Assembly: GCA_963751345.1 (NCBI GenBank)
Contig: CAVVUS010000023.1
Coordinates: 192,001-256,000 of the forward strand
Source of the DNA: an uncultured Chloroflexia bacterium
Lineage (GTDB): Bacteria > Chloroflexota > Anaerolineae > B4-G1 > SLSP01
Direction of reading: 5' to 3'
DNA length: 64,000 nucleotides
The translations under genes were made by a program, and so were the position numbers. Position 1 is the stretch's first letter, and the number at the start of each line of letters is the position of its first letter. Shown here piece by piece: positions 29,964 to 58,048 of the stretch. The notes under the pieces are model-generated. The model made no database searches. It was given only the letters and a program-made list of their open reading frames with translations, and was not told the origin of the DNA.

Positions 29964-30077
29964 TGGGTATGCCTCCTCCGCTGCAGACGATACCGCCGTC
30001 CGAGCGCGGCGTCAAGGGGCAGGCTGCTCGCGGTCCACCGGGGACGGCAAGACGTCGGCAGGGCCAGAAGGTCGAGC

Positions 30078-30187: not shown

Positions 30188-30240
30188 GAGAGGGGGGGCG
30201 TGCCGGATGGGTCCCGCCCGCGGTCCCCTGAGTATCCCCT

Positions 30241-31432
30241 CTATCGCGAGCCGGGGTAGTCGCGCGGCGGATGTCTCAGCAGCTCCGCCTCGATCGAGAT
30301 CGGAACCCAGGCCGGGCCGATCGGGCACTTTCAGATAGCCGTCCTCGACCTCGAAGGGATGTGTCATCAGGTCGTCGCGCCACGGCGCGTCGTCGACGTC
30401 GAGTTCCAGAATAGCGAAGTTGGGGATCGTGGCGCAGAGGTTCGCCGAGATCAACGTTGTGAGCGGGCTGTGGCAGTTATGGGGCGCGACCAGGACATCA
30501 TAGGTGTATGCGAAGTCGGCGATCTTCTTGCCCATCGTGAGGCCGTTCCAGGCCAGATCGGGCATGATGACGTCCTGGGCGTGAAGCTCCAGATAGGGGC
30601 GGTAGCCCTGGGTGCCGAAGAGGCTCTCGCCGTGGCAGATCGGCGTCGACGTCGCGTCGCGGATCACCCGCAGCGCCGCAGGGTCGAAGGTCTCGGTCTC
30701 CAGCCACATCATATCGTAGGGCTCCAGCGCGCGGGCGAGCTTGGCCGCCGCTCCGAGCTTGAACTCGAAGGCGACGTCGAGGGCGATACCCACATCCGGT
30801 CCCAGCACCTCACGGAAGATACTGACCACGGCGACGGCATCGCGAAGCGTGGCAGGGGCAATGGCGCCGGTCGGGTGGGTGAAGATGTCGCGGTCGGCCG
30901 CCGTGTCCGGACGGTCGGCCAGCCGGATCAGGTTGGTCTTGAGTGCTGTGTACCCGCGCGCAGCGACTTCCACCGCAAAGGCGCGCAGGTCGTCGCTGGT
31001 CTCGATCGCGGGGAGCCCGAGCGCCTTCGCCCATGCCGGCCGTGCGCGGGTGGATCCACAATGCGTCCAGTAGAGGCGCAGACGGTCGCGCATTTTGCCC
31101 CCCAGGAGCTGCCATACGGGGACGCCAAGCGCCTTGCCGCGGATGTCCCAGAGGGCAGAATCGATGCCCGCGGCGGCCTTAGAGGCGATGCCGCCGGTGT
31201 GACGGACCGAGGCGGCGGATAGGTCCCACCAGATGGCCTCGACCTGCATCGGGTCGCGGCCGACCACGAAATCCGCCCACCGCGCCACGGTGGCTGCGAT
31301 AGGGCCGGGTGCGCCCCAGTCGGTGCAGTCGCCCCATCCGACCAGGCCCGGGTCGCTCGTCTCCACTTTGACGAAGGTCCACGGACGGAAACCCCCGTCG
31401 ACGATGAACGTCTTGATGGCGGTGATGCGCAT
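30241..31432 (-). CDS. Mandelate racemase/muconate lactonizing enzyme family protein (C-terminal frameshift near 30290)
   Basis: GIDSALWDIRGKALGVPVWQLLGG, LKTN, WLETE, CHGES, APHNCHSP, PDRPGLG. The ORF extension to 29945 is taken as artefactual. Confidence 0.85.
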
Positions 31433-33368: not shown

Positions 33369-33459
33369 TGCAGTCGTCTCCTTTGCATCAACACGCCCGC
33401 TGACTCGTGGTCTGATCTGATCTGAAGGGCGCTGCGGTTCCCGTGGGCGGCAGACTCTA

Positions 33460-36400
33460 TCAGTCCTGGGTCTGGTCTGCGATCGCGGACCTCGGCAACC
33501 ATACATGAAAGGTTGCACCATGGCCCAGCTCACTCTCTACGTCAATGCGCCCGCCGTGCTCTTGCACGATATTGCGGCTCACGAATAGCCCCAGCCCAAG
33601 TCCCAGCTCCTTGGTGCTGTGGAAGGCTTCGAACATGCGCCGCACTTCTTCCGGCGCGATGCCCAATCCCGAATCGGCAAATGAGATCCGCACACCGAGC
33701 GGCTCTTCCGTGTCTCCTGCTCGTATGCGCAACTCCCCTCCGTCAGGCATAGCGTCGATGGCGTTCAGCACCAGGTTCAGAAACACCTGCTGGATGTGTT
33801 CGCCTACTATCGCGACGGGCTGCAGGCCATCGTCGCCCTCCCATATCAACTCCACGCCACGGTTCTGGGCCTGATTGCGGGTGAGAAGCATCACCTTTCT
33901 CACCAGGTCGCCCACGTTAGTCAGCTCCCTGTGCCCTTCTCCACCTCGGCCCATATCGCGCATCCGGTGCACGATTCGCGCGGCGCGCCTCAACTCGTCC
34001 ATCGCCACGCTCATATACTCCGTGGCGTCCTCGCCATCATCAAGATTCTCCATCGCCAAACCCAGGCATCCGACCACGGCCTGGATCGGATTGTTGATCT
34101 CGTGGGCCAGCGAAGCCGTCATGCGTCCCATGGCCGCCAGGCGTTCCGTCTGGATCAGCGCCTCGTGAGCACGTTTGCGTTCGGTGATGTCGCGTGCGGC
34201 CGCAAAGATGCCGGTGACCTCTCCCCTCTCATTGCGGTAGACCGAGGCGTTGTAGAGGACGGAGGTGATATGGCCATCGCGATGCCGTAGCTCGAGTTCG
34301 AGGTCGTGTACCGAACCCTCGCGGAAGACGTGCTCATAGCTGGCACGCGACCACGGCCGGCGCGGTGAAGTAGTCGGAGAAATCTGTCCCGATGAGCTCG
34401 GAGCCGCGAGCGTCCTGTCGCGGTCTCGGCTGCCGTGTTGACGTCGGTGATTCTCCCATCCGGCCCAATGGTCACCAGCGGATCGAGGCTGGCCTCGATC
34501 AGGCTACGGTTGTAGGCATTGGCCTGATGTAGTGCTTCCTCGGCCCGCTTGCGCTCGGTGATGTCATCCACCAGAGCCAGCACGAGAGGCGGGGCCCCGG
34601 CGTCCTCCCGGAGCCACGACACCGTGGCGTTGGCGTCGCCCCTCTGTCCATCCCTGCGGCGGTAGCGAGTCTCAATCGAGGTCTCGCTCGCCTGCCGGGC
34701 CACGAGTTCCGTAAGCCACGTCTGGGCAGCGGGGTCGGCGTTATCCAGGAGTCGCACGAAGTCCATACCCACTAGCTCCTGTTCGCTGTACCCAAGCATC
34801 CGCCGCAGCGCCGGGTTGGTGGCGACCAGCCTGCCCTCGGCAGTCGCCAGGGCTATGCCGATGCCCGCCCCCTCGAAGATGGTTCGGAAGCGCGCTTCGC
34901 TCGCCTCCAGAGAGGCTGTTCGCTCCTGCACGAGCGTCTCGAGTTCGTCGGCGTGGCGCTGTACCTGCTCGTACAAATAGACCTGCTCCAGGCCAATGGC
35001 CAGCTGTAGGGCCAGCTCGTGTATCACCTCGATGTGCTCAGCCGGGACCGCGCCGGGCGTCGCCATGCCGACACCGAGCATGCCCAGAAGCCGTTCGTGG
35101 ATCAGGACCGGCTCGTAGATCTGGGCACGCACGCCTTCTGCCCGGAGTTGGGCAATCAGCGACGACGAAGATGGCAGCGCCTGCAAGTCGTCGACGATAT
35201 AGCTTCTGCCCTCCATCAACTCTGCGAACACCGGGTCCCACGTCGGGTCTGCAGGGCCTCGCCAGCCACTGCCGAGCGCGCTCTCGTCCCTTGCTGGCTG
35301 AAGGTCGCCAGCAGTGACAGTTCCTGCGTGTCCGGCTCATAGATCACCACGCTGGTGCGCAGGCACGGGAGCAACTGGGAGATCTGCCGCACGACCGTCT
35401 GGGCTGCCTCCTGCAGCGAATGCGCGGCAATGATGCGTCTCGTCGATCTCGTGGAGGGAACGCAGTCGTTCTGCATAGCGGTGCAGCGACTTCTCAGCCT
35501 GTTTCTGCTCGGTTATGTCCTGGAAGTAGACCGATATGCCGCCGCCTTCCCGCGGGAAACAGCGATTGTGGAACCAGCGGCCCCAAGGCTCGTAGTAGTT
35601 CTCGAAGTCGCGAATCTCCCCGGCCGCAGCCCGACGATATTCGCGCTCCAGCACGGTCCCGAGCGTGAGCGGGAAGACTTCCCAGTGGCTCCGGCCGAGT
35701 ACCTCGTCGCGGCGAATGCCCAGAATACGCTCCGCAGGGGCGTTGACGTAGACGAAACGCCAGTCGGCATCACAGGCAAAGAAGCCGTCGCCAATGCTCT
35801 CCAGGGTGGTTCTGAGCAGTTCCTGGTGAGCTTTCTGTTCGCTAATGTCGCGCCAGGCGACAATGCCGCCGATCACGTTGCCGGCAGCATTGCGGATTGG
35901 CCCAGCGGAGCACAGAAGCGGAACGTGCTCGCCGCGAGAGTTGGCCTGCACGAGTTCCACATCCTTGACGATCTCACCGTGCTTAACTGCCCGCATCACA
36001 GGTAGCTCGTCGTCAGGCAATAGTGTTTCGCCATCAGCCTGATAGACTCGCCACTGGGCAGCCACATCCGTCGTCTGCATGCCCTCGTGCGGACCCCCGA
36101 GGAGCTCCTCCCCGTAGCGACTGACGCGGGTCATGTTGAGCGCCGCATCTACCATCGTGATGCCTTCAGGCACATATTCCATCAGCGCCGAAAGCATCCG
36201 GTCGCCCTCCTCGGCCCTGGCAAGGGCCTCACGCAACTGCTTTTCTGCGCGTTTACGTTCGGTGATGTCGCGGGCGATGACCGTCGCGCCCGCAGGCTTC
36301 CCGCTTTCGTCTGCGGTGAACGTGACGTCCAGGCCTACGTCGAGGACGCGACCGTCGCGGCCGCTCACCCTGTATTCAGCGGCACGTATCCGGTTTCTCT

Positions 36401-41447: not shown

Positions 41448-44400
41448 GTGCTTAGCCGTAAAATCCTAAACCTTCTGGTCCTGATATCCATGTTGGCGTC
41501 CCTCTTGGTTGTGGGTGGCGCGAGTCCTGCGAGCGCCGATAATGTACAGAGCCCCACCTGCTGCCCGCGACGAGCAGCGTCACGGCCTGCCCGATCAGGT
41601 CCAACGGACGAGACGAAGGTCCCGCACTACTTCGGCCCCTGGCCGAACTGGGCCAACAGCGCCTACACGCTGCCGGATGTCACCGTGACGATCAACGGCG
41701 ACGGTATCCGGCGCAACGGCGGCTGCCACGGTCGGGGGCAATGGTGCCGTCACCGGCGTCGAGATCACCAATCCCGGAAGTGGCTACACGTCCGCTACAG
41801 TTGACTATCAGGCGGCGCCGGCAGCGGAGCGGCGGCTGATGCCATGGTCACAACCTCGAGGCGCGGTCACCAGCATCAATGGTAACCGCGGCGGGCGGCG
41901 CATACACCGACCCCGTCGCGGCCTTCTCGGCGGGGGACGGGACCGGGCCGCGGCGACCGTCTACGGCGGCGTCGATGACGATCACATTGGTGACTGCGGG
42001 CAGCGGGTACACGATGCCTACCGTCGACTTCGATCTACCGGATGACCCCAACGGGACGATCGCCAAGGCACACGTCGATTGGGATCCGGTCACGGGCGTC
42101 ATTTCGGACGTCGTGGTGGATGATCCGGGGTCCGGGTACTCCTTTGCGCCGAACGTGGTTATCCGGGATGGTACCCAGTTCGAGCCCCTCAACACTCGTG
42201 CACTCAACGCCGCCAAAGCCGCCCGCGAGGCAGCTCTGGCCTCCCCGAGCGCGGATGCAGTCCCTTCCAGCGCCATAGCCCCCCTGGCCGTGCCGCGGAC
42301 GTTAATGCAACCGCCACCGCGACCTTGTTCGTCTCGGCGGTGAAGGTCGACACCAACGGCTCGGGGTACACGTCTGCACCGGCGGTGACCATCCTCGACG
42401 CGACCGGGATCGGCAGTGGTGCGGCAGCCACGGCGTTCACCGATATTGGCGCAGTCACTGCCATTACCCTGACCGCCGCCGGCTCGGGCTACGTCACGCC
42501 GGGCGGCATCCAGAAATTCCAGGATGGCCTGCCGATGCTGTGTGACCCCTCCGTCGGCTGCACCGACAATGACCTGGGGCAGCATGTCCCGCTCGCCGTG
42601 CCCGACACGACGACTTTCCCGGGTGCCGACTACTACGTGATCGCGCTGGTCCAGACGCGCGAGCAGATGAACTCGTCCCTACCTATCACGGGCACACTGC
42701 TACGCGAGTACGTGCAGCTCGAGACCGCCGATAATTTCTCCTGGAGCAAGCACGTCGCTCTGCGGACTGAAATGCTCGATGGCACATCCGTGCCGACCCT
42801 CATGCCCGACGGATCTCAAGCCGTTGCAGTTGACGATCCGCACTATCTGGGACCGATCATCCAGACACAGAAGGATCAGCCGGTCCGCATCCTCTTCTAC
42901 AACCTGCTGCCGACCGGAGCCGCCGGCGACCTGTTCTTCCCGATGGACTCCACCTTCATGGGCGCCGGGATGGGTCCGGAAGCTATGGATGCCATGCAGC
43001 CGGAGGATCTGGGCACCGTCATGGACCAGGTGCGCAACCCCATGTGCAGCGAGAAGATGACGCCCATGGAGCGCAGCCTGTGCTTCGCGGACACGCGGGC
43101 AAGCCTCCACCTTCACGGCGGCATCACCCCGTGGATCAGCGATGGCTCACCGCACCAGTGGATCACGCCGGCTAATGAGCAGACCGGCTACCCCGAGGGT
43201 GTCGCCGTCCGGCAGGTCCCGGATATGGTGGGACAGGCCGCGATCGATGCAGGCATCCCTGACTGCTCGGCGGCGAATGACGGCTGCATGACCTTCTACT
43301 ACACCAACCAGCAGAGCGCGCGGCTGATGTTCTATCACGACCACGCCTGGGGCATCACGCGGCTCAACGTGTACGCGGGCGAGGCTGCCGGCTATATCAT
43401 CCGCGACGCCACCGAGAAGGCGCTCATCGACGCCGGTGTGATCCCGAGCGGTGCCGACGAGATTCCGTTGATCGTTCAGGACAAGACCTTTGTCCCGAGC
43501 GCGGCCCAGATGGCAGAACAAGATCCCACGTGGGACTACAGCCGCTGGGGCAGTGAGGGCGACCTGTGGTACGAGCACGTTTATATGCCGGCCCAGAACC
43601 CCAACGACCCCTCGGGCCTGAGCACCGTAGGGCGCTGGTTCTATGGACCATGGTTCTGGCCACCCTCGTCCCCGACCTATCCGGCGATCGATAACCCGTA
43701 CTACAATAAGGATCCCGATGGCGCGGACAATATCCGGGGCAACGCAGACGACTGGTTGAACGACTTGGCAACGCCATGTCGCCTGGACGACCCCGCCACC
43801 TGGCAGTACGACACGGACCCCTACTGCGAGCCGCCCCAGATCCCCGGCACGCCGAACAACTCGGCCGGGATGGAGCAGTTCAACGACACGCCAACCGTCA
43901 ACGGTACCGCCTACCCGACGGTCACGCTCGAGCCGAAGGCGTACCGGTTCCGCATCCTTAACGCCGCCAACGACCGCTTCTTCAACTTCCAGTGGTACAT
44001 CGCCGACCCGACGACCGGGACCGATAGCGAGGTCGCGCTGGATCCCTCGCTCTTGGCGGCTGCACAGCTCGACCCGAACGTCTTCCCGGTTCCTCTCGAG
44101 AGCATGGTCATCAGCGGCACGACCGTCGATCTGAAGGGGCCGGACTGGATCCAGATCGGCACCGAGGGCGGCTTCCTGCCGGCACCGGTGGTGGTGGACG
44201 GTCAGCAGGAGACCACCTGGATCATCGACCCGACCCGGTTCGACGTCGGCAATGTGGATAAGCACTCGCATGTTGGTGGCGCCTGCCGAGCGGACCGACG
44301 TGATCGTCGACTTCTCGCAGTTCGCGGGGAAGACGCTGATCCTCTACAATGACGCGCCCGCAGCGTTCCCGGCACGCATCTCCACCTACGACTACTACAC

Positions 44401-46352
44401 CGGCGCCCCGGACCTCAGCCCGGCAGGCGCTCCTACCGACCTTGCCCGGGTACGGGCCGAACACCCGCACCATCATGCAGGTCGTGATCACGAACACATC
44501 CACCCCGGCGCCTAGGTACGACCTGCGCGCACTCCAGCGCTGCCTTCCGCCATCACGCGATGGCTCGGGCGTCTTCGAGTCCGGCCAGAATCCGACCATC
44601 GTCGGGCAAGCCGGCTACAACTCAGCCTACGGCACGGACTTCGTCTCCGGAAGCTGGTGTAACGATCCCGCGGCGCCCCCAGACACACCGTGTGATGGTT
44701 TCGCGCGGATCAGCGAGCAGGGCCACGATATGTTCAAGTTCGACACCCTGATCGGCATCCAAAGCGGCACCCAGATCAGTGTCAGCATCGAGCCTAAGGC
44801 CATCCATGACGAGACGAACGCCACGAACTTCGAGCCGTGGGGCCGGATGTCGGGCAACCTAGGCGTCGAGGCCGTCCCCGCCACACCACTGGGGCAGACC
44901 ATCGTGCTGTACCCGTTCGTGAACCCGCCGACCGAGCTCTTCGACGCCACGAACTTGCCGACGACCGACACGGTGACGCCGATCGCGGTAGCGGATGACG
45001 GGACCCAGATCTGGAAGTTCACGCACAACGGCGTGGACACGCACCCGATCCACTTCCACCTCTACGACCTCCAGCTGCTCAACCGGGTGACGTGGGATAA
45101 CATCGTCATCGCGCCCGAACCCGGAGAACTCGGCTGGAAGGACACGGTGCGGGTGAGCCCGTTGGAAGACACCTACTTCGCCATCCGGCCGATCATCCCG
45201 GTCATCCCATGGGAGATCCCGAACAGCATCCGACCGCTCAGCCCGGAGATGCCGCTCGGCAGCACCGGGGAACCAGGGATGTTCAACTCGACCGACGCGA
45301 ATGGGAACCCAACCGACCCGATCGTCAACAAGCTGGTCAACTTCGGCTGGGAGTACATGATGCACTGTCACATCCTCTCGCACGAGGAGATGGATATGAT
45401 GCGACCGCAGGTCGGTGGCTGTACCGCCGGTCGCGCCGGATGGGCTGGCCTACACGATCAGCGGGAGCAACCTCGGTCCTGAGCTGGAACGACAACTCGA
45501 TCAGCGAGACGGGGTACGGCGTCCAGCGGTCCACAGATGGCGGTCTGACCTGGAACAATCTGGGGGTCGTCGACTCGCCGCTGAACGTGCCGAACACCAG
45601 TGGTACCACGCGTTCCTACATCGACACCTCGCGCGTGCAGGGCACGGCCTACACCTATCGGGTCCTCGCCCTCAACACCGTCGGCTACGGTGGCGCGTAC
45701 CCGTCCATGACGGTGCAGTCGGCATCGCCGACGCTGCTGGTGGGCGCGCCGGCGGCGCCGTCGAATGTGAACGCCACGGCTGCACCATCGGGAGGCTACG
45801 CCACGGTCACGGTGACGTGGACGGACAACTGCCAGCAACGAGACCTCCTTCACGATTCAGCGGGCGACTGATGCAGCCTTCACCACTGGTCTGCTCACGC
45901 GCAACGTAGCGGCCAACAGCACTACATATACGACGGGAATCCTGCCAGTGGGGGTGGACTTCTACTTCAGGGTCAGGGCGAATAACGCGATAGGGTCATC
46001 CGCGTGGGTGAACGCGGTCCCGTTCCCGATACATGTCACACCAGCGACCGTTCCTGCGGCTCCATCCAACGTAGATGTGCAGCTGTGGTGCGCATCCGCG
46101 GGGCCTATGCGACGGTCACGCTGACCTGGACGGATAACTCCAACAATGAGAGCCGACTTCACAATCCAGCGCGCCATCGATGCGGCCTTCACCGCGGGCG
46201 TACTACACGCTAGGGGCGGCTGCCAACAGTGTCACCTATCTACGTCAGGACAGTCCCCGTGGCCTTAACTTCTACTACAGGATCCGCGCGAACAACGCGG
46301 CAGGGTCATCTGCTTGGGTCAACGCACGCCGTTCCCTGTCCCCACGCCTTAG
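41448..46352 (+). CDS. Large secreted multicopper oxidase (CotA/bilirubin oxidase-like) with N-terminal GSGY repeats and C-terminal FN3 repeats (several frameshifts)
   Basis: Signal peptide ending ASA. Copper motifs HLHGG, FYHDH, HPIHFH and HCHILSHEEMDMM. FN3-type LSWNDNS..ETGYGVQRS, YTYRVLA and WTDNSNNE. Confidence 0.85.
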
Positions 46353-46586
46353 CTAGGCTAGGACTCAGGCTGGCCGCCGTCGGCTAGCGCGGTCACTGCG
46401 CGAACCGAGTGCGTACAGGCAGCGGAGGGCGGTACGAGTACACATCGCAGGTGCAGATTGAAGGGAGCGGCAAGTCAGCTGTGGCCATAGCCTACGGGGA
46501 GCTTGTGCCAGAGCGGCTGATGGTAGCGTAGCCATAGATTGCGATGTACAATTCGAGGCGTAGCGATCGACATACAGGAGGAAGCG

Positions 46587-46841
46587 ATGGACCACCAATA
46601 GAGCAACCAGCCGGATGTGTCAGACGAGCGGTTTCAGGGCTGCCCACAGGAGAAGCTGGTCTGGCATGCACCGAAGTGCTTTGCCTTGGGCGTGAGAGCA
46701 ACGCGTGGCGGGCACGGTCACGAGGTCGATACGGGGGGGCAGACCTACACCTTCACTCGGCTGCCCCACATCGATATGGGCTACCTGCCTTGTGCGCATC
46801 CCGACCGGATCACGGATAGCCGATCGGGAATACGTTGCTAG
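46587..46841 (+). CDS. Putative lasso peptide precursor (A)
   Basis: SD AGGAGG then ATG 46587 (in-frame TAG at codon 5; open from GTG 46617). Leader KLVWHAPKCFALGVRATR fits [YW]xxP....L....T(-2). Core begins GGHGHEVD with Asp8. Confidence 0.7.
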
Positions 46842-46984
46842 GCTGAAAGGCCTAGTGACGTCAGCTTGGTGTCAGCATAGGGCGACCTGCCCAGTTGTCG
46901 TGGAAGATTAACACCAGCAGCGCTCTGCCGTGGGGGGCCCAACTCAGGCGTCAGTGGCGATGTTGATTAAGCATAGTCAAGTTC

Positions 46985-47015
46985 ACCGGCGGCACGAACC
47001 TTTCGTGCCGCCGGT
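46985..47015. terminator. Hairpin between convergent precursor and cyclase genes
   Basis: Perfect 14-bp inverted repeat ACCGGCGGCACGAA / TTCGTGCCGCCGGT with loop CCT. Confidence 0.6.
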
Positions 47016-47049
47016 TGCATGTCGGCTCGTTAGGGGAGGCGGCACTCGG

Positions 47050-48933
47050 GTTCAGGGCCACCAGGTGACCGCCCACAGAACACCGGATTCGCCCAGCTTG
47101 CCATCGCCGGTGCCGTCCCTGACCATTATGGCTAGGGTTTGCGTAACCCGGTCTGCTTCCACGAAGCGCGGTCTCCCTTCAGTCTAGAGGCGGTGCTGCA
47201 GTCTAGCCAAGAGGATCTTGAGCACCGGAGCGATGCTGTCTCTGCTTGTGCAGCAATGGCTGTGTCAGTCTTTGAATCGAACCAGCGAACGCTCTCTGGG
47301 AGGATGCCACCGAGCTAAGCCGATAGAGATAGCGCCGCACGCCATGTCGGACGAACATCGTCGGCGGGAGGCCCAGCGCAAACTCAACGACACGACGGTC
47401 GAGGAGCGGGAATCGATAGACAATGCCGTGCTCTGCTCCGTGGGATGCCCGAGATTCGGCGCGCCACGTTAGGTGCCCGCGCCGTAGCAGCGCGATCTGC
47501 GTGCCCCGAACGCTTGATCGAGCGACCTGACGGGGCAGTCGCCGATGCCGGCGCTCTGGAGGGCTTCTGCGAGTTCCGGCGACAGGAACAGAGAACACCT
47601 GCGCCAGTGATGCGATTCGATCCTCGGTTGGGCGTTGGCGAACCGCCCGGAGGACCAAGTTCGGGCATCATAGGGCGTAGCAACGTGGCAGCTACGGTGC
47701 GGACGGTCGCGCGATCCTGCACCTTGGCTTCCCGCCACAAGCGTACCCCACTTCCCGCGCCAGAACAAGTCCGCATAGAAACCACGGCCGTTGAAGGACG
47801 CGAGTTCGTCGCCGCCCCAGCCCGACAACAGAACACGGACCCCGGACTCGCTGGCCAGACGGTTCACGGTGAGCTCCATCCGGGCCGTGACGGCAGGACG
47901 CGTCGTGATATCGCGATCAAAGAGCGCAATCCAGTCGCCGGTCGTGGCCGCGGCATAGCGTATTGGCATGTCTTCCTGCCGGCTGATCTCGTCGACACGG
48001 TGCCGCTCATCGTCGAGGCCCAGTGAGGCTCCGGTCCTCAACCGGAGGCGACCAGGAGAAGCCAGCAGCTATATCTTTGCTTTGCGCCCGGAGCGCGCGT
48101 GCTGCCAGGACCGCTACCGAGGACGAGTCTAGGCCGCCGCTGATGTGCGCACCCACCGGGTAGGATGAGCGGACTCGGCATTCGACGGCTTTCGTCAGAA
48201 GTTCTCGCAACGCGTCAGCGTAGGCCGCGTCCGAGGGCAGCCGCACGGCTCGCGCATGCTCGGGATGCCAGTACTGCCACTGTTTGAGTCCGTCCTGGCC
48301 CACCGACAGGGCATGCGCCGGCGGGAGCTTCGCGACCTGAGCGTAGAAGCTGCGCGCCAGGTGCACGGTAGGGTTCTGGCTCATGTAACCAGCAAGGGTG
48401 GCAATGTCGAGCACTGGCTCGATGCCCTCGAAGGCAAGCATCCCTCTGACATCCGTTGCGAAGCAGAAGCCGGTCTGGGTTGCGTGGTAGTGGAAGGGCA
48501 TCACACCGAAGATGTCGCGCGCACAGAACAGCCTCCGCAGGCGCGCATCCCAGATGGCGAAGGCGAAGTCGCCCAGCAGGTGCTCCGGCGTCGCCTCGCC
48601 CCACTTCTGGTAGGCCAGCAGGATGAGCCGGCTGTCGGGCATCGCGGGCCTTCTTGCGGCGTCACCCGTAGCGCGCCGAAGAGCTCGTCGCGGTTGTCGA
48701 TCCGCGCATCGGCCGTGATCGTGAGCCCGGCGACAGCATCGTGGTAGGGCAGGCGCTCGACCTGCGACTCGGGGGTCACCCACATCATCTGGTGGCCCAG
48801 CGCGGCACTGCCCTCACACCAGACACCTGACCCATCCACGGCGTAGTGGCGCCATCGCGGCCATCGGTGCCGCCAGGTCGGCCGGGGAGGCGGGCCTGCC
48901 GTCGAATCGGACGATCCCGCAGATCGCGCTCAA
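47050..48933 (-). CDS. Lasso peptide cyclase C (asparagine synthase-like; several frameshifts, 3' end approximate)
   Basis: TTG start MSAICGIVRFDG (Ser in place of the Ntn Cys), TADARIDNR, LLGDFAFAIWD, ARDIFG, HISGGLDSSSV, LSGWGGDE, YRFPLLDRRVVEFALGLP. Confidence 0.85.
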
Positions 48934-49383
48934 GGGGTCACGCCCCTTTCGTCTGCAAAGCTGTTGACAACACAGAATCGCTGACGTCCGGCCCCGCCGA
49001 TGACGATGGTCTCGCCACATCGGAGCCACGCGTGCGCGTCCAGAGCCACCCCATCGGCTTTAGCGACACCCAGGTAGAGGGTGCTGGGAAGGCCGCGCCG
49101 GTGGAGCATCCGCTGGGCGGCGATAGCCTGGTCGAAGCAGTAGGATCTTCCACGGGACATACCGCCGGACCGCGCGGATGGCCCACCCAGACGCGTGGCA
49201 GCCTGCTGGTCCGGCGCACCTCGTGCGGGGACTCCGCCATCTGCTGTCCCAGGTGCTGGCGCGATGGTTCGGAAGGGCAGCACCACCACGGCCAGCCGCG
49301 CGACCGCCAGCCAGAGGGTGGCCTCCACGACCAACCGCCGATCAGCCGGTGGCAGGGAGCGGCGTCCGGACCTTACGGGCCAA
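48930..49383 (-). CDS. Lasso peptide leader peptidase B2 (transglutaminase-like)
   Basis: EATLWLAVARLAVVVLPFR, CFDQAIAAQRMLHRRG, LYLGVAK, DAHAWL. Stop overlaps the cyclase start (TTGA). Start approximate. Confidence 0.88.
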
Positions 49384-49663
49384 CGATCTCCAGGAGTTCG
49401 GCATCCAGCAGCACGCCCAGGAACTGGTTGACGTCGCGACGGCAAGTGTCGGCGTCGACGTCGTAGGTGTCCATCAGCTGGTCGCAGATCGAGGACACCG
49501 AGCACGGCGACCCCACAATGTCCCAGATACGCGTGCCGATATCATCAAAGCCGTAGTACATGCCCTTGTCGACGTTCATCGCAGCCGTCTCGTTACCCAC
49601 CGGTGCTGAGATCGACCCGGGCCGTCGCACAACCACGGTATCCAGCGTGAGCCCAGCAGTCAT
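49373..49663 (-). CDS. PqqD-family RiPP recognition element (lasso B1)
   Basis: MNVDKGMYYGFDDIGTRIWD..SICDQLMDTYDVDADTCRRDVNQFL. Confidence 0.9.
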   Translation of the reverse strand: MTAGLTLDTVVVRRPGSISAPVGNETAAMNVDKGMYYGFDDIGTRIWDIVGSPCSVSSICDQLMDTYDVDADTCRRDVNQFLGVLLDAELLEIVGP

Positions 49664-49725
49664 TCGGCTCAAGGATTCCTCCTATGCAATCGAGTTGTTG
49701 CCAGCGGGTCGGCTGGCGATCGGCC

Positions 49726-50608
49726 CTAGAAGGCCGGGTAGCCGTCATCTGTCAGGTAGCCGAACCGGCGCATCACATCGCCGTGCGCTGCGATGATGCT
49801 CGCGACGTGGTCGGATGTGAGCGCCTCCCGCCACGTCCCCACCTCGCCCCTCCGGAAGAACGACGTCGCGAGCGGCATCTTCTCACCGAAGCCATGCTCC
49901 TGCTCCTGACGCCGTAGCTCGTGGAAGCTGGAGAAGGCCAGGGCTTTCTCAATACGCGCGACATCATCCTCAAGTCCCAGGTAACGGACAGCCCACGAAA
50001 GGTCTCCAGCGTCCGCGCCTTCATATCCTCGTAGCGCACGACGTGGACGTCAAGGGATGGCTCGTCGACCCAGCTGACGACGTGCCCGCTCCAGGTGAGC
50101 AGGCGCTGCCGCAGTTGGTTGTACAGCCGGTCCTCGCGATCGACAAAGGCGAATTCAGGGTCGTTCATCTTCGCGATCATCTTGTCCACCGAGGTTGCGC
50201 TGTGATGTGCAAAGGAGACGGCAACGTCCAGGGGGTTGCGGATGAGGTAGAGCACGCCCTTAGTGGCCTCCGACGGAACGAGGGGCGATCCGTCTGGGTG
50301 TGTAGGTGAAAGCGTCGTGGATCTTCAGGTAGAGGGTCTCACTGCTGTTAGCAGCGACCTGCACGGTAGACCCTAGGCCGGTAACGCTCGATCTCGTCCT
50401 GCGTCAGGTCCGAGGCCTCGACGCCCACGGCTTCGTCGAAGATGGTGCGGGCACTGGCGATGGGGCCCCCTGTATCCAGGCTGTTGATGTCGACGGGCTT
50501 GTCGCCATCGGCAAGGTAGTTGCTCAGGAAGGCGCGCATCCACGTGTTGCCCGACTTGGGGTAGGAGGCCAGCCAGACGATGCGGCGAGCGCCAGGGGCG
50601 TCAGTCAC
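49726..50608 (-). CDS. PAPS-dependent sulfotransferase (Sulfotransfer_1; frameshifted)
   Basis: WLASYPKSGNTW (5'-PSB loop), KIHDAF, YLIRNPLDVAVS (3'-PB), RYEDM, FFRRGEVGTWRE. Confidence 0.85.
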
Positions 50609-51534
50609 GCGGCCCTCTCCCATCAAGTCCTCCTCAACAGCTGAAGCCAGCTCATCGAGCAGGTAGGGGTGCGTGGGTCGCGTCACGCGTACAACGCGGG
50701 CGGCGTTGGCCGCCATCGCCACCAGGCTGAAGTGTTCGACGCGCATGGCCAGTCCATCCAGGAAGCGGCCCCGGTAGGTGTTGTGAAGGAGGACCCCGAA
50801 CTTGCGCGCATCCTCGACCGGCGCCAGCAGGAGCTCCTGCCTTGTTGTGCGTCTGCAGCAGGTAGACCGCGTACAGAGGCAGCGGTTCGCGAGCGAACTG
50901 GGCTTCGAGCGGTACGGCGTACTTGTCAAGCTGGGGGCGGACGCGGCGCAGTGAGTCCGTGTCGAGCTCGAGTCTCCTGGCCGCATCCGCCCAGAGCTTG
51001 GTCTGGGGATAGCCCGGCAGCACGATTGGGGTGGCCGTACCATCGGTCGTGGGCGCAATCGCGCAGACGTCGTCGGCAAGGAGCCGGTAGCCACGCTGCC
51101 ACAGCGCCGCGGCGAGCGTCGACTTGCCACTGCCGGAGGTCCCGGAGATCAGGACGGCCCCCTTCGGCGTCTCGATCGCGCTTGCGTGGATAACGAGCAG
51201 CCCGCGCTGATGGAGCAGGGCAGCCGAGAGCCGAGCCCAGCAGGAAGAGCCGGATCTCGTCATCGGTGGCGCCAGGTACGGGTTCGACCACGATGTCCCG
51301 CCCGTCCGTCACGTAGTAGCCCGCGATGGCATCCAGCCTGAGCAGGAACTCGTTCGGCTTGGCCTGATAGAGCACCCCGGTGCCGACCGGGTCGTCAAGC
51401 TCCTGAGGAACCTGACCTAGGCGGATCCGGACGGCATCCTCCGGCACGTCCTGCAGGGGGAGGGGGAGGAGCTCCGGGAGCTCGAAGTCGGAGATGATGG
51501 TCAGTCCGTAGGCGGTGTATGTATAGGGCGTCAT
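50605..51534 (-). CDS. HPr kinase-like lasso peptide kinase (PadeK-like; frameshifts near 51230 and 50840)
   Basis: YTAYGLTIISDFELPEL, RLFLLGS, LLHQRG..IHASA, GTSGSGKSTLA Walker A, LLADD, PGYPQTKLW. Confidence 0.85.
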
Positions 51535-51570: not shown

Positions 51571-51579
51571 ATTATAGCA
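51571..51579 (-). promoter_or_regulatory. Extended -10 element for the lasso maturation operon
   Basis: Minus strand TGCTATAAT, 36 nt upstream of the kinase ATG. Confidence 0.5.
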
Positions 51580-51774
51580 GGTCCCGCGCGCGCCACAACC
51601 CCAAGTGGCGCGGCTAGCGCGCTCACGGCATGGAGCCTTGCCAGGTCTCGGCGTGACGTCAAGGCACCTTCGCCCACGCAAGATCTGCGGCCGCACAGGG
51701 CAGGCTAACCCTCGCAAGATCGGCCCTAGTGCAAGATCAGGCGACGTGTTCGGGAAAGCCACGACGGTCGGCGA

Positions 51775-51830
51775 AGACCTTTGGGGTTTCCTTCGAGCGG
51801 TACCTGACTCGAAGGAAACCCCAAAGGTCT
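51775..51830. repeat. Long perfect inverted repeat (REP-like or terminator)
   Basis: 23-bp arms AGACCTTTGGGGTTTCCTTCGAG / CTCGAAGGAAACCCCAAAGGTCT with a 10-nt loop. Related copies at 11703, 23925 and 60310. Confidence 0.75.
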
Positions 51831-52601: not shown

Positions 52602-52624
52602 GTCAAACTCCTTTCAGTCGTTCC

Positions 52625-53796
52625 CTATCAGTTGTAGCTACGATCCTCATTCCGGCGCGGACTTTCTGATGAAGTCGAGGTCCAGCGTGATGCCCAGGCC
52701 GGGACGGTCGGGGATTGCGAGATAGCCATCCTCGAGCGCGAACTGCTCCACGGTGACGCCGTCGCGCAGCGGGTTGGGCGCTGCGATCGTATTCGAACCA
52801 AGGCTCTGCGGGGAAGCGGCGATCGGGGAAGTGGGGGAGCGCGGCGATGAGCTGCAGTGACGCCGCGAGACCGACGTTGGTACCCCAGACGTGGGGCACG
52901 ACAGGTAGGTTTGCGGCGCTCGCCATCGCCACAATGCGCATCATCTCGGTGAATCCGCCGGTGGCGCAGAGGTCGGGCTGCAGGATGTCGACCGCGCGCC
53001 GATTGATGAGGTGGCGGAAGCCAAAACGGGTGTATTCGCACTCGCCACCAGCGATGGGTACGTAGCCGGCCTGGCGCAGTTCAGCGTAGCCATCTATGTC
53101 CTCAGGTGGCACAGGTTCCTCGAACCACGTGAGATCGTACGGGGCAAGGTCGCGCGCCAGACGCAGCGCCTCGGGGGCGTTGTAGGCGTGGTTGGCGTCG
53201 ACCATAAGCGCCAACTCGTGGCCGATGGCATGGCGAATTGCGTGGACGTAGCGGAGGTCTGTGCGCGCGTCGTAGCCAATCTTCAGCTTCATGCCACGGA
53301 AGCCCTGCGATGCGTAACCTACGGCCTCTTCGACGAGGGCTTCGGCCACACTCGGCACGCCCTGGGGCTCGTAGAGGCCTGTGGCGTAGGCCTTCGCCCG
53401 TGTGCGGTAAGCCCCACCCAAGAGCTTGTGCACGGGAAGGCCCAGTGCCTTGCCCTTGATGTCCCAGAGCGCGATATCCACGGCGCTGATGGCCGATATT
53501 GTGAGGCCTTTCTGCCCCTGGTCGCGGGTCCAGTTGTAGAGCATGTCCCAGATGACGGACGTGTCGAGTGGGTCCAGCCCAAGGATCAGCGGGCCAAGCC
53601 CATGGTCGATCAGCCGGGCGACAATGGTCGAGGGGCCACCGAAGTAGAACGCTTCGCCGGCCCCCTGAATCCCGGCGTCGGTTTCCACGATGCAGATCGC
53701 AGTCTGGCGGCTGTTGCCGACGCGCTGCGACCATCCGAAGGCGTGGGTGCCCAGATCAGCCTGGAGGACATAGGTCCGGATGCCTGTGATGTGCAT
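52625..53796 (-). CDS. Mandelate racemase/MLE family protein, galactarolactone cycloisomerase-like (frameshift near 52780)
   Basis: FGWSQ, RDQGQKG, SAVDIALWDIKGK, YATGLY, KLKIG, DANHAY, WFEEP, PHVWGT, EYDRS. Confidence 0.82.
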
Positions 53797-53833
53797 GGAT
53801 GCTCCTTGATCGAGATCTAGACTCGTCCCGAAC

Positions 53834-56800
53834 TCAAGCAATCATCTCGCCGAGCTCGCGCATCTCGGCGACCACGTCGTCGGGGAGCACCGGCGGTTCG
53901 ACACCCAACAGCCTGCAGGTGAGGAGCTTTTCGGCGGTCGACTCGATGATGAAGGTGACGTCGGCAGCCCGGCGAACGCTGCTGCCCGCGACGACCAGCC
54001 CGTGATTTTGCATGAGCGCGGCAGAGCCGTGACCGCCGATTGCCGCGGCGACGGCGTCGGCCAGCTCGGTGGTGCCGGGTCTGATGAAGGGCACCACCGG
54101 CACATCGCCGAGAAACGCGGCCTCCGCCGAGATCGGCAAAAACCGCGTGCCGGTCAGCGCCATCAGCATGGCCTGCGGGGCATGCGAGTGGACGATGGCT
54201 TGGACGTCGGGCCGCTCACGGTAGATGGCGCAGTGGACGTGGCGCTCGCTGGAGGCGCTATAGCCGTTGTCGCTCAGGACGCGGCCCTGCAGGTCGATGC
54301 GTACGAGCATCTCCGGCTGCAGGGCTCCCTTGAAGACGGCGCTGGGCGTGATCCAGAGCTGATCCGGATTGCCGTCCACGCGCGCGCTGACATTTCCCCC
54401 TGTGGGTGTGATAAGCTGCGCCGCGTAGAGGTCGTGCACTGCTTCAAGGATGTCGTCCCGGACGTCGCCAACACGATGGGCGGGCGCCGGGCCTATCGCC
54501 GCGGATGTCGCGACGGCGGGTATGGGGGAGGGCGAGCCGGACCCGGTAGCAGCGGGGCCGCCGATCCGGGTGAGGTCGCCGGGATCTCCGACCGCCTCGC
54601 GCGCCGCCGTGTAGAGCTTCCCCAGGTCGCCCTGCAGCCGCTGGAAGGCCATCGCTTTGCTGGTGTCGCCGCTGAAGGAGAGCTTGCCGGTCATTGCTGC
54701 GCGCATACCGTTGACCTGGCCGGTGAAGATCCCGTCCAGGGTTGCCGCGCTCATCTTGAGGTGAACGTTCGCCGCCTGTGGCGGCGTGCCCATGCCGGCA
54801 GATACGCGTCCGCCGATGAAGCTGAGGTAGAAGTCCAGCGCCAGATCGCGCAGTGTGAACAACATCGTGACGTCCTTGCCCTTGGCGAAGTCGGCCATCT
54901 TGGGATCGGCGGCGACCGCGGCGGTGAAGCTATCCAGGATGCGCACAATCGTGTTCTCGGCGTCTCGGGATGCGGGCTGCGGCTCCGGCGCCGCTGCGGG
55001 CGTGCCACGGAATCGCCTGGCGAAGCGGCTGAACAGGCCTCGCTCAGTGGGCGCTGCCGGGTTACTCGCCGGTTCGCGTTCTGCTTGTGCCTGCGTCTGG
55101 AGTGCTGGGTCGACAGGGCCCGTCTGGGCGGAAACGGGACGTACGGCGGCCTCGCCAGCGTGTACCGTCCGCGCCTCTACCTGGAGATCGCTCACAGCCG
55201 GACCGGGGCCCGCGGCCAACCGGTTCAGCGTCTCTGTCGCAACGCTCCTCTCGCCGGTCCAGGAGAAGCCGGCCAAGGTCTCCGGGTTCAGGAGGTGGTG
55301 CGGCCTCTCGCCCGCTAACATGCGCTCGATCTCGGCGACGACGACCGCGCCTTGATGCGCAGCAACGTCGTGGGTGTTCCCGGCCACGTGCGGGGTAGCG
55401 ATCACGTTGGGGCAAGCGAGCAGCGGGTCGTCGGCGCCCGGCGGCTCGATGGAGAAGACGTCAAGTGCAGCGCCTCCCAGCTTCCCGGAGGTGAGAGCGT
55501 GCGCAAGCGCGCGGTCGTCGATCAGGGCTGCCCGCGCCGTGTTGATCAGGAACGCGCCATCCTTCATGTGGGCCAGGGCATCTTCGCCAATCATGCCAAG
55601 CGTCTCATTTGTCACCGGCGCGTGGAGGCTGACGAAGTCGCTCTCGGCAAGGAGCCGATCGAACGACACCTTGGTGGCCCCGAGCAGCGCGGCTTCCCCG
55701 GTGCTTACAGCCGGATCGGTTATGACGATGCGGGCGCCAAAGGGCAACAAGCGACGGATCACCCCTCGTCCTACCGCACCTGCGCCGACCAGGCCAACCG
55801 TCTTGTGCCATAGTTCGTCGCCCTGGAAGCTCTCGTGGGCCATGCCCATGCGCCCCATATCGCCGGCCTCACCACCGGGCCGGCGCAGAAAAGCCGTTGC
55901 CTCCGGCAATTTCCGAGCCAACATCAGCATGAGCGCCAGAGCCAGATCTGCCACCGCGTCGGCATTTCGCCCCGGCGTGTTGACGACAGGGACACCGGCG
56001 GCGGAGCACGCTGCGAGATCGACGTTGACAGGGTTTCCCCGGCACGCAAGGATCAGCCTCAGATCCGGCAGCTTCTGCAGAGCCTCTGCGTCGACCACGT
56101 CCACTTCGGTGACGAAGACATGGTATCCCTCCAGTGCCTCCCACAGGTCCTCACCGACCAGGAGGCGGCTCTCCTGGCGGTAGCTGGCGAAGGTGACATC
56201 ACCCAACTGCCGCAGCCGGTCCAGGGACGCGCCATCCACATCGGCGCTGACATAGATTCGGGGCCGGAAGCCGAAGGTGGGAGCCAGCTCCTGCTCATCG
56301 GGCTCCTGAAGGAGCTCCTGGACAATCGCCTCCGCCACGATTTCGTTGGTCTCGGCCTGTCCCTCGCGCATGTCCAGCCAGCGCGCATATCGTGACTCGT
56401 ACGCGTCCACCGACGCCGGCTGCGGCGTGTGGCTGCGGGTGACGGTGGTCAGCCTTTCCGCGCCGGCTGCCGCATCGCCGAATAACCCAGAGCCCACACC
56501 CGCGCAGATCGCAGCGCCCAATGCCGATGCCTCGGGAGGCCCCGCCACATTGATGGGGAGACGCGTCACGTCGGCGAGTATCTGGCCCCACAGCGCGCTG
56601 CGGCTCATGCCGCCGGCCAGCCGAAGCGTCTCGGGCGCTTGGCCTGAGACTTCCCGGACGCGTTCGAGGTTGAGCCGGACGGCGTAGGCCATGCCCTCCA
56701 GGACGGCTCGCGCCATCAGGGCCCTCCCAGGGGTGTCGCGGACCATGCTGGTAGCGGAGAAGGTCAAGTTATCCACAGGCAGACTGAGGTCCGAGGCGCT

Positions 56801-57847
56801 GAAAGCCCGTGCGCCCACTGTCGATGCGATGCCGCCTGCTCCGGGCGAAGCGTGAGCGGCCTCCGCGCAGAGGGCTGCGACGGGGTCCGGCAAACCGGCA
56901 TACCAGGCTGCGGCTACCCAGGCCAGAGTCTCGCCTGAGGATGCAGCGTTGCTCTCCAGTACGTAGAGACCCGGCACGACGTGCAGGTCGGTCCACAGAC
57001 GCTTCTTGGGATCGATGATCGGCCGGCTTGTCGTCAGCATGACGGAGGTCGTCGTTCCGGCTACAACCCCAAACTGACCTGATGTGGCGGCACCCGTCGC
57101 CAGGAGGGCACACTGCGTGTCGGCCCCGCCCGCAATCACGGGAGTTCCCGCCCGGAGGCCAAGATGCGAGGCTGCGGCATCGGTCAGCTCGCCGACGACC
57201 GCGCCTGCATCCACGAGCTGCGGGAAGATGCGGCGCGGCAGTCCGTACGAAGCCAGAAGATCCGCGGCCCACTCGCGGCTCTCCAGATCGAGCGCCATCG
57301 TCTCGGCTGCCTGCGACCGGGTGAAAGCCACGTTGCCCGTCAGCCTGTAGCCGAGCCAGTCACTGACGCTGAGCGTTGCACGGGCGTCCTTCAGCAGGCC
57401 GGGGTCGGTCTGGGCCAACCACATCAGGCGCACGGCGCTGAGGATGGGGTTGGGCCAATGCCCCGTGCGCCGGTAGATCTCGTCGCCTCTGTCGTTGCCG
57501 ATCTGTAGGGCCAAGATCCCCGCTCGGGCATCCATCGTAGGCGTCGCAAAGAGAACAGCGCCATCGCGGTCGATCAGGACCGTGCCGTGTCGCATGGAGG
57601 TTATGCCGATGCCGGCGACGTTATCCGGGGTGGCCCCCGCTTGCTGCATGGCCTCGCGACAGGTCTCGCCGACGACGCGCCAGACAAGATCCACGTCGAG
57701 ATCGAGGGCCCAGTGACCGTGCTGCGGCGCGCGAAGGTGCGTCCAGCTGCGGGTGCTCGTCGTGGATTGCCCAGTCTCCGTATCGATGACCAGGCACCGC
57801 CCGCCGCTTCCGCCCAAGTCGAATCCTACCAGGTACCGTGCGCTCAT
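53834..57847 (-). CDS. Multidomain fusion: FGGY carbohydrate kinase + D-2-hydroxyacid dehydrogenase + SCP2 + class II aldolase
   Basis: GFDLGGSGGR/GGADTQ/RAVLEG (FGGY); GLVGAGAVG/INTARA/LDVF/TPHVAG (2-HADH); NGMRAAMTGKLSFSGD (SCP2); GGNVSAR/SSERHVH/HSH/NHG (FucA-like). Confidence 0.9.
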   Translation of the reverse strand: MSARYLVGFDLGGSGGRCLVIDTETGQSTTSTRSWTHLRAPQHGHWALDLDVDLVWRVVGETCREAMQQAGATPDNVAGIGITSMRHGTVLIDRDGAVLFATPTMDARAGILALQIGNDRGDEIYRRTGHWPNPILSAVRLMWLAQTDPGLLKDARATLSVSDWLGYRLTGNVAFTRSQAAETMALDLESREWAADLLASYGLPRRIFPQLVDAGAVVGELTDAAASHLGLRAGTPVIAGGADTQCALLATGAATSGQFGVVAGTTTSVMLTTSRPIIDPKKRLWTDLHVVPGLYVLESNAASSGETLAWVAAAWYAGLPDPVAALCAEAAHASPGAGGIASTVGARAFSASDLSLPVDNLTFSATSMVRDTPGRALMARAVLEGMAYAVRLNLERVREVSGQAPETLRLAGGMSRSALWGQILADVTRLPINVAGPPEASALGAAICAGVGSGLFGDAAAGAERLTTVTRSHTPQPASVDAYESRYARWLDMREGQAETNEIVAEAIVQELLQEPDEQELAPTFGFRPRIYVSADVDGASLDRLRQLGDVTFASYRQESRLLVGEDLWEALEGYHVFVTEVDVVDAEALQKLPDLRLILACRGNPVNVDLAACSAAGVPVVNTPGRNADAVADLALALMLMLARKLPEATAFLRRPGGEAGDMGRMGMAHESFQGDELWHKTVGLVGAGAVGRGVIRRLLPFGARIVITDPAVSTGEAALLGATKVSFDRLLAESDFVSLHAPVTNETLGMIGEDALAHMKDGAFLINTARAALIDDRALAHALTSGKLGGAALDVFSIEPPGADDPLLACPNVIATPHVAGNTHDVAAHQGAVVVAEIERMLAGERPHHLLNPETLAGFSWTGERSVATETLNRLAAGPGPAVSDLQVEARTVHAGEAAVRPVSAQTGPVDPALQTQAQAEREPASNPAAPTERGLFSRFARRFRGTPAAAPEPQPASRDAENTIVRILDSFTAAVAADPKMADFAKGKDVTMLFTLRDLALDFYLSFIGGRVSAGMGTPPQAANVHLKMSAATLDGIFTGQVNGMRAAMTGKLSFSGDTSKAMAFQRLQGDLGKLYTAAREAVGDPGDLTRIGGPAATGSGSPSPIPAVATSAAIGPAPAHRVGDVRDDILEAVHDLYAAQLITPTGGNVSARVDGNPDQLWITPSAVFKGALQPEMLVRIDLQGRVLSDNGYSASSERHVHCAIYRERPDVQAIVHSHAPQAMLMALTGTRFLPISAEAAFLGDVPVVPFIRPGTTELADAVAAAIGGHGSAALMQNHGLVVAGSSVRRAADVTFIIESTAEKLLTCRLLGVEPPVLPDDVVAEMRELGEMIA

Positions 57848-58048
57848 TACCGATCCTTTCATGGCTGGGTATCGGCTCGCCAACATTGTGAGGCTACTTG
57901 GCATCCGGTCGTGCAGACGCCTGTGGAGGCACCCCGAAGGCAGGTGGTGCCCCTGACCTCGGCAAGATCTGACGCCCTAAGAGTGCGTTGTTCTCGTCAG
58001 GGTACTGCACGCCGCTGGTACGGTCAAGTGCCGGCGATTGGGTGTATA

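Follow-up and report, generated by a model that had tools for sequence, protein, structure and literature searches.

What does a sulfotransferase do in a lasso peptide gene cluster that also encodes a kinase? The question is raised by positions 46587-51534 of a 64,000-nucleotide stretch of DNA, here called the window (G000:C23:192001-256000), which comes from a metagenome-assembled genome (MAG) of 5.4 Mb in 49 contigs. From its rpoB sequence, whose nearest named relatives are labelled Anaerolineae bacterium (80-89% identity), the host is an Anaerolineae-like Chloroflexota; a preliminary description made from the letters alone had supposed a Chloroflexota-like organism. In the following, K denotes an HPr-kinase-like protein, ST a sulfotransferase, B1 a PqqD-type recognition element (RRE, for RiPP recognition element, RiPPs being peptides made by the ribosome and modified after translation), B2 a leader peptidase, C a cyclase and A the precursor.

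The locus is a genuine class-II-type, kinase-bearing lasso cluster, with K-ST-B1-B2-C in one operon and a convergent precursor gene. It is one ordinary member of a widespread and conserved family of clusters in which K and ST are paired, and ST probably acts together with K at or near the C-terminal serine of the precursor. The many frameshifts of the deposited sequence are likely to be errors of assembly. Taken as a whole, this explanation (identity of the cluster, mechanism, artefactual frameshifts and ordinary membership in the K-ST family) seems to us rather probable. The preliminary description is supported in part: it was right in kind and overstated the rarity of the locus. What is new here is the prediction of a K-ST complex, together with the observation that a C-terminal Ser is a near-universal feature of the cores, many of which are devoid of Tyr.

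The cluster, its promoter and its precursor

Gene bounds were set by frameshift-aware protein-to-DNA alignment to intact relatives, each gene being covered end to end. Three relatives recur in what follows: G002, a syntenic sister species, and G015 and G016, two short-read relatives with intact genes. Pfam matches were obtained for eight of the ten minus-strand open reading frame (ORF) fragments scanned between 47.2 and 51.9 kb, the families matched being Asn_synthase, Transglut_core3, PqqD, Sulfotransfer_1 and Hpr_kinase_C. Together with the alignments, these matches establish the minus-strand order K-ST-B1-B2-C; every part that had been described between 46587 and 51534 is present where it had been placed. 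The identification of the cluster relies on the matches of the five enzymes, on their full-length alignments, on a leader that G002 and G016 also have, on a conserved promoter and on a stable hairpin.

K extends from 51534 to about 50600 on the minus strand and encodes about 308 residues (Hpr_kinase_C, E-value 4e-8), 83% identical to the intact kinase of G015 and 62% to that of G016. The P-loop GTSGSGKST is present, and the profile of the kinase family matches HPrK structures with an E-value of 8e-8. ST follows at 49726-50608 (minus strand, about 293 residues) and is of the type that uses 3'-phosphoadenosine 5'-phosphosulfate (PAPS). Its Sulfotransfer_1 matches are spread over two fragments (E-values 6e-7 and 2e-3), one of which, 49773-50255, scores 29.5 bits in Pfam for a cut-off of 22 bits. 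The protein is 89% identical to the intact ST of G015 and 73% identical to P0002. The translations of the window fragments contain a PKSGNTW loop, the catalytic His and an RNPLDVAVS motif; we take PKSGxTW to be the 5'-phosphosulfate loop and RNPxDxxVS the 3'-phosphate motif, as in cytosolic sulfotransferases.

B1 (49373-49672, minus strand) is intact, with 99 residues, a TTG start behind GGAGGA and no frameshift; it matches PqqD with an E-value of 7e-17 and is 54-56% identical to its G016 counterpart. B2 (48930 to about 49398, minus strand) is a transglutaminase-like Cys protease, 52% identical to the G016 protein, and gives the sole Transglut_core3 match of the genome (E-value 1e-19). C (about 47017-48933, minus strand, TTG start) is an Asn-synthase-like lasso cyclase whose GATase_7/Asn_synthase matches are spread over three fragments, with E-values from 5e-16 to 6e-8. 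Of the 638 residues of the intact G016 cyclase, 630 can be aligned to it, at 54% identity and with no in-frame stop, and translation of 48007-48783 yields the ATP-pyrophosphatase motif SGGLDSS. The N-terminus of C is MSAICG. Since residue 2 is a Ser, the Cys of this segment is not N-terminal, and the earlier reading of a Ser-initiated, AsnB-like cyclase stands.

The genes are tightly packed. The overlapping stop and start codons reported previously are found at the B2/C junction, where the stop of B2 and the start of C share TTGA, and B1 and B2 also overlap. The K/ST junction is blurred, as assembled, by one missing base; in G002 and G015 the TGA stop of K overlaps the ATG start of ST by 8 nt. 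ST is thus enclosed by K and B1, the junctions on its two sides being overlapping or close, and the same holds in G002 and G015. G016 contains an intact K-B1-B2-C cluster plus a precursor.

A conserved extended -10 promoter, deduced from its sequence and its conservation, would drive the whole operon. The element occupies 51571-51598 on the minus strand and consists of a -35-like TTGTGG, a 16-nt spacer and the extended -10 TGcTATAAT, within TGCTATAAT, at 51579-51571, 37 nt upstream of the K start. The extended -10 had been pointed out in the preliminary description; in the four same-genus loci that could be aligned, TGCTAnAAT and GGTTGT are invariant. This conservation is seen by alignment, a search for the exact promoter pattern in the relatives' loci having given no match, and a generic promoter scan of the window region returned no promoter at all, that of K included.

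At the other end of the operon, directly after the end of C, a hairpin with a perfect 14-bp stem and a 3-nt loop (46985-47015) separates the convergent genes A and C, as already described. Its folding free energy is -31.6 kcal/mol on the plus strand and -29.4 kcal/mol on the minus strand (z-scores -5.45 and -4.33), and none of 200 shuffled sequences is as stable. It is probably a bidirectional terminator; the generic terminator scan does not list it, because it has no T-tract. A second hairpin, with 25 perfect base pairs (51775-51829, -49.6 kcal/mol, z-score -9.7), separates the RraA-like gene from the K promoter. G002 has a match to it in inverted orientation, and this hairpin probably serves the upstream gene as terminator.

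The precursor gene A lies on the plus strand, from an ATG at 46587 to a stop at 46839-46841, and is identified by alignment of its leader. A Shine-Dalgarno-like AGGAGGA (46576-46582, plus strand), read directly in the sequence, stands 4 nt upstream of the ATG, and G002 has a similar GGGAGGGG ahead of its own precursor ATG. The G002 and G016 precursors can be aligned to the leader KLVWHAPKCFALGVRATR, and tblastn with the G016 precursor matches 46647-46742 with an E-value of 3e-6. Read in this frame, the leader ...EKLVWHAPKCFALGVRATR ends with ...VRATR and is followed from 46707 by a core that begins with GGHGHEVD (Gly1, Asp8). The G002 precursor reads ...KLSWHAPACFPLSVSEETR followed by FGSSAGPEGQ...IYWGS, and that of G016 ...KLVWRTPTCFALNARETR followed by TGNEPGVEG...GDFGS. 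Lasso precursors carry a Thr at position -2 of the leader, a small residue at core position 1 and an Asp or Glu at positions 7-9. Cleavage after TR puts the Thr at -2 and an acidic residue at position 8 in the window and in both relatives (Glu8 in the latter), which suggests that the leader would be cut at this site.

The assignment of the locus to the paeninodin type, made in the preliminary description, holds for the split B1/B2 and for the HPr-type kinase; it does not hold for the assembled precursor, which ends with ...GIRC and is interrupted early by an in-frame TAG.

Frameshifts of the deposited sequence

Protein alignment reveals 22 frame changes in the cluster: two in K (at about 51220 and 50840), three in ST (at about 50362, 50298 and 49993), none in B1, four in B2 and 13 in C. 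Frame changes in the first six residues were treated as end artefacts and are not counted. Set against the intact contig of G015, the sequence also lacks a base at position 50607, where K meets ST, which brings the total to about 23. The frame breaks flagged at the outset are thus real in the deposited sequence and, as assembled, the genes do not form an intact translatable set. Two explanations must be weighed. Either the breaks are errors of a long-read assembly, which we consider likely to very likely, or the cluster is a truly decayed pseudogene cluster in which the frameshifts and the precursor stop are real and no peptide is made, which we consider unlikely.

Assembly error is favored because of the nature of the breaks, because of what is preserved around them and because of what is seen elsewhere in the genome. 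Every event concerns a single base. In the K-ST coding region, the differences from G015 amount to four extra and two missing single bases, nothing larger. No stop codon occurs among 1492 frame-corrected codons, whereas some 20 natural indels would be expected to come with stop codons and deletions of mixed sizes. All the family-invariant residues are kept (22 of 22 in K and 76 of 76 in ST, hence 98 of 98 together). The ratios of non-synonymous to synonymous substitution rates (dN/dS) relative to G002 are 0.12 for K, 0.09 for ST, 0.19 for C, 0.25 for B1 and 0.50 for B2, to be compared with 0.04-0.19 for four flanking genes; these ratios are biased downward, because the best frame was retained for each block and blocks shorter than 36 nt were dropped. 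The assembly of G002, likewise made up of few contigs, contains 16 frameshifts whose sites differ from those of the window, so that the breaks are not shared, and in the short-read relatives K and ST (G015) and the cluster genes (G016) are intact. Finally, even rpoB is split in the window assembly, into 722 and 586 residues, while two near-identical assemblies have an intact rpoB of 1301 residues. The RraA-like, enolase-like and multicopper-oxidase-like neighbors of the cluster are broken as well. The rpoB gene is found at G000:C10:143888-147659 (L015, L016), in two frames that separate near 145965; one cluster of near-identical proteins contains both halves along with the two intact copies.

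Several observations weigh on the side of decay, in addition to the downward bias of the dN/dS values. The frameshifts are about 20 times denser than nearby, with 22-23 in 4.5 kb versus none in an adjacent 4-kb ORF, and rpoB, over 3.8 kb, has one. G002 shows the same local excess, so that the density is far above that of the flanks in both long-read relatives. Strain heterogeneity in a fast-evolving accessory region may be the cause of this excess; nucleotide identity to G002 is 79-90% in the cluster and 85-95% in its flanks. An intact copy of the cyclase at least 95% identical to that of the window was not found among 5.8 billion proteins, the best match being a 636-residue protein with 75% identity. 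Six ORFs of the window were looked for by exact sequence in the protein collection and none was present, possibly on account of the gene callers' choice of start codons. With a long-ORF ratio of 0.275, for a median of 0.92, the 5-kb bin of the cluster is among the lowest of the genome, but a ratio under 0.45 is seen in 55 of the 1055 bins. This genome-wide map of broken regions, based on the GC content of third codon positions, was too crude and was set aside because many of its low bins, for instance that of rpoB, reflect a failing coding signature.

The precursor is the other argument for decay. The in-frame TAG stands at codon 5 of A (46599-46601) and is not explicable by a single indel; an alternative start, GTG at 46617, leaves the frame open to 46841. 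The last residue of A is a Cys and not the Ser with which the precursors of G002, G016, G005 and G014 end, and no frame gives a terminal Ser. Examination of the other frames and DNA alignment to G002 and G016 recovered no Ser C-terminus for the window precursor, the cores being too divergent for the alignment. Given the local error rate, a gene of the length of A should contain roughly one assembly error, and we take the damage to A to be probably an error of the long-read assembly as well.

The kinase-sulfotransferase pair and a proposed site of sulfo transfer

The co-occurrence of K and ST, to which the preliminary description drew attention, turns out to be common. Two samples were used. 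The ST-seeded sample, with one genome per species, gave at least 600 matched stretches, 579 of which were confirmed, and the best 80 loci were retained. The K-seeded sample consists of 80 metagenome loci, of which 49, having at least 900 nt after K, were evaluable. ST defines a tight family of proteins of about 286 residues, with 2165 members at an E-value of at most 1e-5 among 3246 candidates; the best 119 non-self matches are 57-71% identical to it. A lasso gene lies within 8 kb of ST in 76 of the best 80 loci, which belong to many phyla, and K is present in 73 of them, directly upstream of ST in 58. Seen from the kinase, ST follows K in 21 of the 49 evaluable loci and is adjacent to it in 20 of these 21. 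Hence, ST is rarely found without K, while K often occurs without ST. The titles of the ST-locus records include Chloroflexota, Bacteroidota, Acidobacteriota, Gemmatimonadota, Verrucomicrobiota, Cyanobacteria, Proteobacteria and Sporomusa (Negativicutes). Among 41 genomes of relatives of the window, ST is present in four, all from the same genus, and a lasso cyclase in 19. The K-ST pair is therefore a widespread, conserved lasso module, among the commonest tailoring modules of lasso clusters.

A fusion of the two enzymes was also considered. K of the window reads in frame into ST because a base that G015 has at this place is lacking at 50607; none of the 87 adjacent K-ST pairs in 164 loci is fused, and the idea was rejected.

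Some members of the family are noteworthy in their own right. An Anaerolineales MAG (L021; K, ST, B1, C and B2) has at least six precursor genes, most of them in tandem, at 11675-12700 and at 6884 (plus strand); Ser is the last residue of all their cores, several of which are rich in Cys. Three cultured strains possess the pair: Sporomusa silvacetica DSM 10669 (L070), with matches to K, ST, B1 and C; Petrachloros mirabilis ULC683 (L018), with K, ST, B1, B2 and C; and Octadecabacter dasysiphoniae G9-8 (L090), with K, ST and B2. Such strains, the first two of which offer intact loci, are better bench material than the window MAG.

Where would ST act? A first indication comes from structure prediction with the intact K and ST of G015 and their family alignments. 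The predicted complex scores 0.88 in three runs and the best of three controls 0.00; agreement between runs extends to at least 88% of contacts, with a partner pLDDT (predicted local distance difference test) of at least 85. Of 80 solved complexes 58 attain the pass mark, as do two of 110 mismatched pairs, counts that hold only roughly because our own alignments were used. In the model, K contributes its P-loop region (130-136, 153, 179-182, 196-202 and 252-255); G51, V52, D181, R197 and N228 of K, in G015 numbering, are among the predicted interface residues. ST contributes residues 54-83, 158-163 and 239-243, the first of these stretches corresponding to an invariant block specific to the ST family, at about residues 49-81 in G015, which is placed against the kinase. 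The ST stretches at the interface are presumably acceptor-side loops, by analogy with cytosolic sulfotransferases, and for this reason the two active sites may face each other in the modelled complex. Among the 20 K positions most specific to ST-linked kinases, seven belong to the predicted interface, which comprises 35 of 308 residues (Mann-Whitney p 0.024; 78 ST-linked versus 27 ST-free kinases, kinship not accounted for).

A second indication comes from the precursors. A regular expression defined 93 candidates; a composition filter retained 80, and Ser is the last residue in 53 of them. The C-terminal Ser is the only near-universal feature of the cores. Forty-six of the Ser-ending cores come from ST-positive loci, and 21 of the 46 have no Tyr at all. 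The predicted complex, the dependence of ST on K, the near-universal Ser and the many Tyr-less cores together lead us to propose that ST probably acts with K at or near the C-terminal Ser. The sulfo donor can be supplied by the host: the search for sat and cysC suggested earlier finds a Sat-CysC fusion (G000:C14:213129-214250), one open frame of 663 residues in which the APS_kinase (E-value 4e-66) and ATP-sulfurylase (E-value 1e-82) matches lie side by side.

Three points call for caution as regards this proposal. The complex score is the model's own confidence and not a measurement; the ST-free kinases may form one clade, in which case the test on K positions is not independent of relatedness; and the data do not indicate the acceptor atom for the sulfate.

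The most serious competitor is that ST works independently of K, as a tyrosine O-sulfotransferase acting on a core Tyr in the manner of RaxST and the lanthipeptide sulfotransferases, its position beside K reflecting operon packing. The core of the window contains a Tyr, that of G002 ends with ...IYWGS, and the nearest solved relatives of ST are Teg12, Teg14 and StaL. Moreover, 19 of the 46 cores that end in Ser and belong to ST-positive loci have a Tyr among their last eight residues, versus none of the seven from ST-negative loci (Fisher p 0.041), an enrichment that is weak and depends on a sample of seven cores, some of them from short contigs. As a general role of ST, tyrosine sulfation was rejected in view of this weak enrichment and of the Tyr-less cores. 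It is kept only as a rival that we judge improbable, given these cores, the presence of K in 73 of 80 ST loci and the passing complex prediction. That ST has nothing to do with lasso tailoring and modifies a non-peptide or the mature exported peptide of another pathway, as might be imagined from the four loci of 80 without a lasso gene within 8 kb and from a second sulfotransferase gene in the genome, is very improbable, since 76 of the 80 loci, in many phyla, are in lasso clusters and ST is embedded between K and B1 in the window, G002 and G015 alike.

The four loci in question (L084, L089, L093 and L094) come from alphaproteobacterial MAGs, in which ST may have another partner. The second gene, more distant in sequence, is a Sulfotransfer_1 match at G000:C27:34220-35044 (plus strand) within an open frame of 388 residues.

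The following pathway may be drawn. B1 would bind the leader, B2 would cut after its ...TR, and C would join Gly1 to Asp8, closing the ring. K would phosphorylate the hydroxyl of the C-terminal Ser on the linear precursor. These four steps are drawn by homology to characterized systems. For the fifth, we infer that ST, in complex with K, would take a sulfo group from PAPS and place it at this same C-terminal end before folding, the acceptor being either the phosphate of the phosphoserine or a nearby hydroxyl. The former case would make the pair a two-enzyme machine with facing active sites, producing a peptide-borne phosphosulfate anhydride by transfer of sulfo from PAPS onto phosphoserine. 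We regard this version as speculative and rather unlikely. To our knowledge, the phosphosulfate anhydride linkage occurs so far only in PAPS and in adenosine 5'-phosphosulfate (APS). Were it true, the family would represent widespread, cross-phylum lasso peptides with a new post-translational modification.

Taken by itself, the locus is unremarkable and ill suited as a working copy, and the interest lies in the K-ST family. With a predicted complex, the dependence of ST on K and cores without Tyr, the role of the sulfotransferase can be put to a defined experiment.

Neighborhood and known systems

The genes around the cluster encode a PAS histidine kinase, a LuxR-type regulator, multicopper-oxidase-like, RraA-like and enolase-superfamily proteins and a four-domain fusion. 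As the preliminary description had indicated, no ABC exporter or isopeptidase is adjacent: a scan of 20 ORFs from the 35-64 kb region, a selection of the ORFs present there, found no ABC-transporter or peptidase family, and five of the 20 have no Pfam match. A transporter of the major facilitator superfamily is encoded 6 kb from the cluster. The fusion ORF (53834-57904, minus strand, 1356 residues) combines an FGGY carbohydrate kinase, a D-2-hydroxyacid dehydrogenase, SCP2 and a class II aldolase, an unusual arrangement; it is unbroken in the window and syntenic in G002, with a dN/dS of 0.19. On the other side, a large multicopper-oxidase-like gene (Cu-oxidase_2; 42325-46350, plus strand) is read in at least three frames and has 90% DNA identity to G002. 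Three genes of the mandelate racemase / muconate lactonizing enzyme type are also present on the minus strand (29945-31432, 32202-33533 and 52603-53841), the last with a frameshift near its 3' end.

The pairing of the two tailoring genes has been in print since 2014. Letzel 2014 (BMC Genomics) describes lasso clusters with an HPr kinase and a sulfotransferase and states that their roles are unknown, and Zhu 2016, as cited in a 2021 review, reported a putative sulfotransferase gene in lasso clusters of Firmicutes. Their clusters have the same gene content and are a few from Firmicutes and anaerobes, whereas the window belongs to a Chloroflexota MAG and the present survey extends the pair to many phyla beyond their listings. 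A characterized sulfated lasso peptide or K-ST product was not found in full-text searches, which cover neither supplements nor most subscription papers, in agreement with the preliminary description. PMC8776678 mentions a sulfotransferase only in the context of polyketide synthases.

On the kinase side, the nearest system is paeninodin, from Paenibacillus dendritiformis C454. According to the 2021 review, it resembles the cluster studied here by its split B1/B2, its Asn-synthase-like cyclase, its HPr-kinase-like enzyme and the Ser-ending precursors, and its kinase acts on the C-terminal Ser of the linear precursor. It differs by an ABC transporter gene and by the lack of a sulfotransferase, whereas in the window no transporter was found in the cluster, K and B1 flank ST and the precursor gene is convergent. 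SyanK and ThcoK, from proteobacterial and Thermobacillus clusters, belong to the same kinase family and share the C-terminal Ser as target; they add several phosphates, and a sulfotransferase has not been reported to play a part there. The 2021 review summarizes this chemistry: the kinases modify the C-terminal Ser and accept the linear precursor only, polyphosphorylation occurs, and in pseudomycoidin the phosphate is glycosylated.

On the sulfotransferase side, Teg12, Teg14 and StaL are the solved structures nearest to ST by sequence profile (E-values from 9e-23 to 4e-14). Like ST, they have a PAPS-binding fold, and their substrates are peptide natural products, the relationship being distant and the ST family differing by its own invariant block. 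Teg12, Teg14 and StaL sulfate phenolic hydroxyls of cyclic peptides. Sulfonation of ribosomal peptides with PAPS is illustrated by RaxST, which acts on RaxX, and by SslST and SscST, which act on lanthipeptides; according to PMC11143521 (2024), these enzymes sulfate Tyr, a residue that many ST-linked lasso cores do not have. That article lists the known sulfonated RiPPs, and lasso peptides do not occur in its main text.

Finally, pseudomycoidin, from Bacillus pseudomycoides, is a precedent in which the phosphoserine formed by the kinase is elaborated by a second tailoring enzyme. There, the second enzyme is a nucleotidyltransferase that adds a hexose; in the window, it would be a PAPS-type sulfotransferase.

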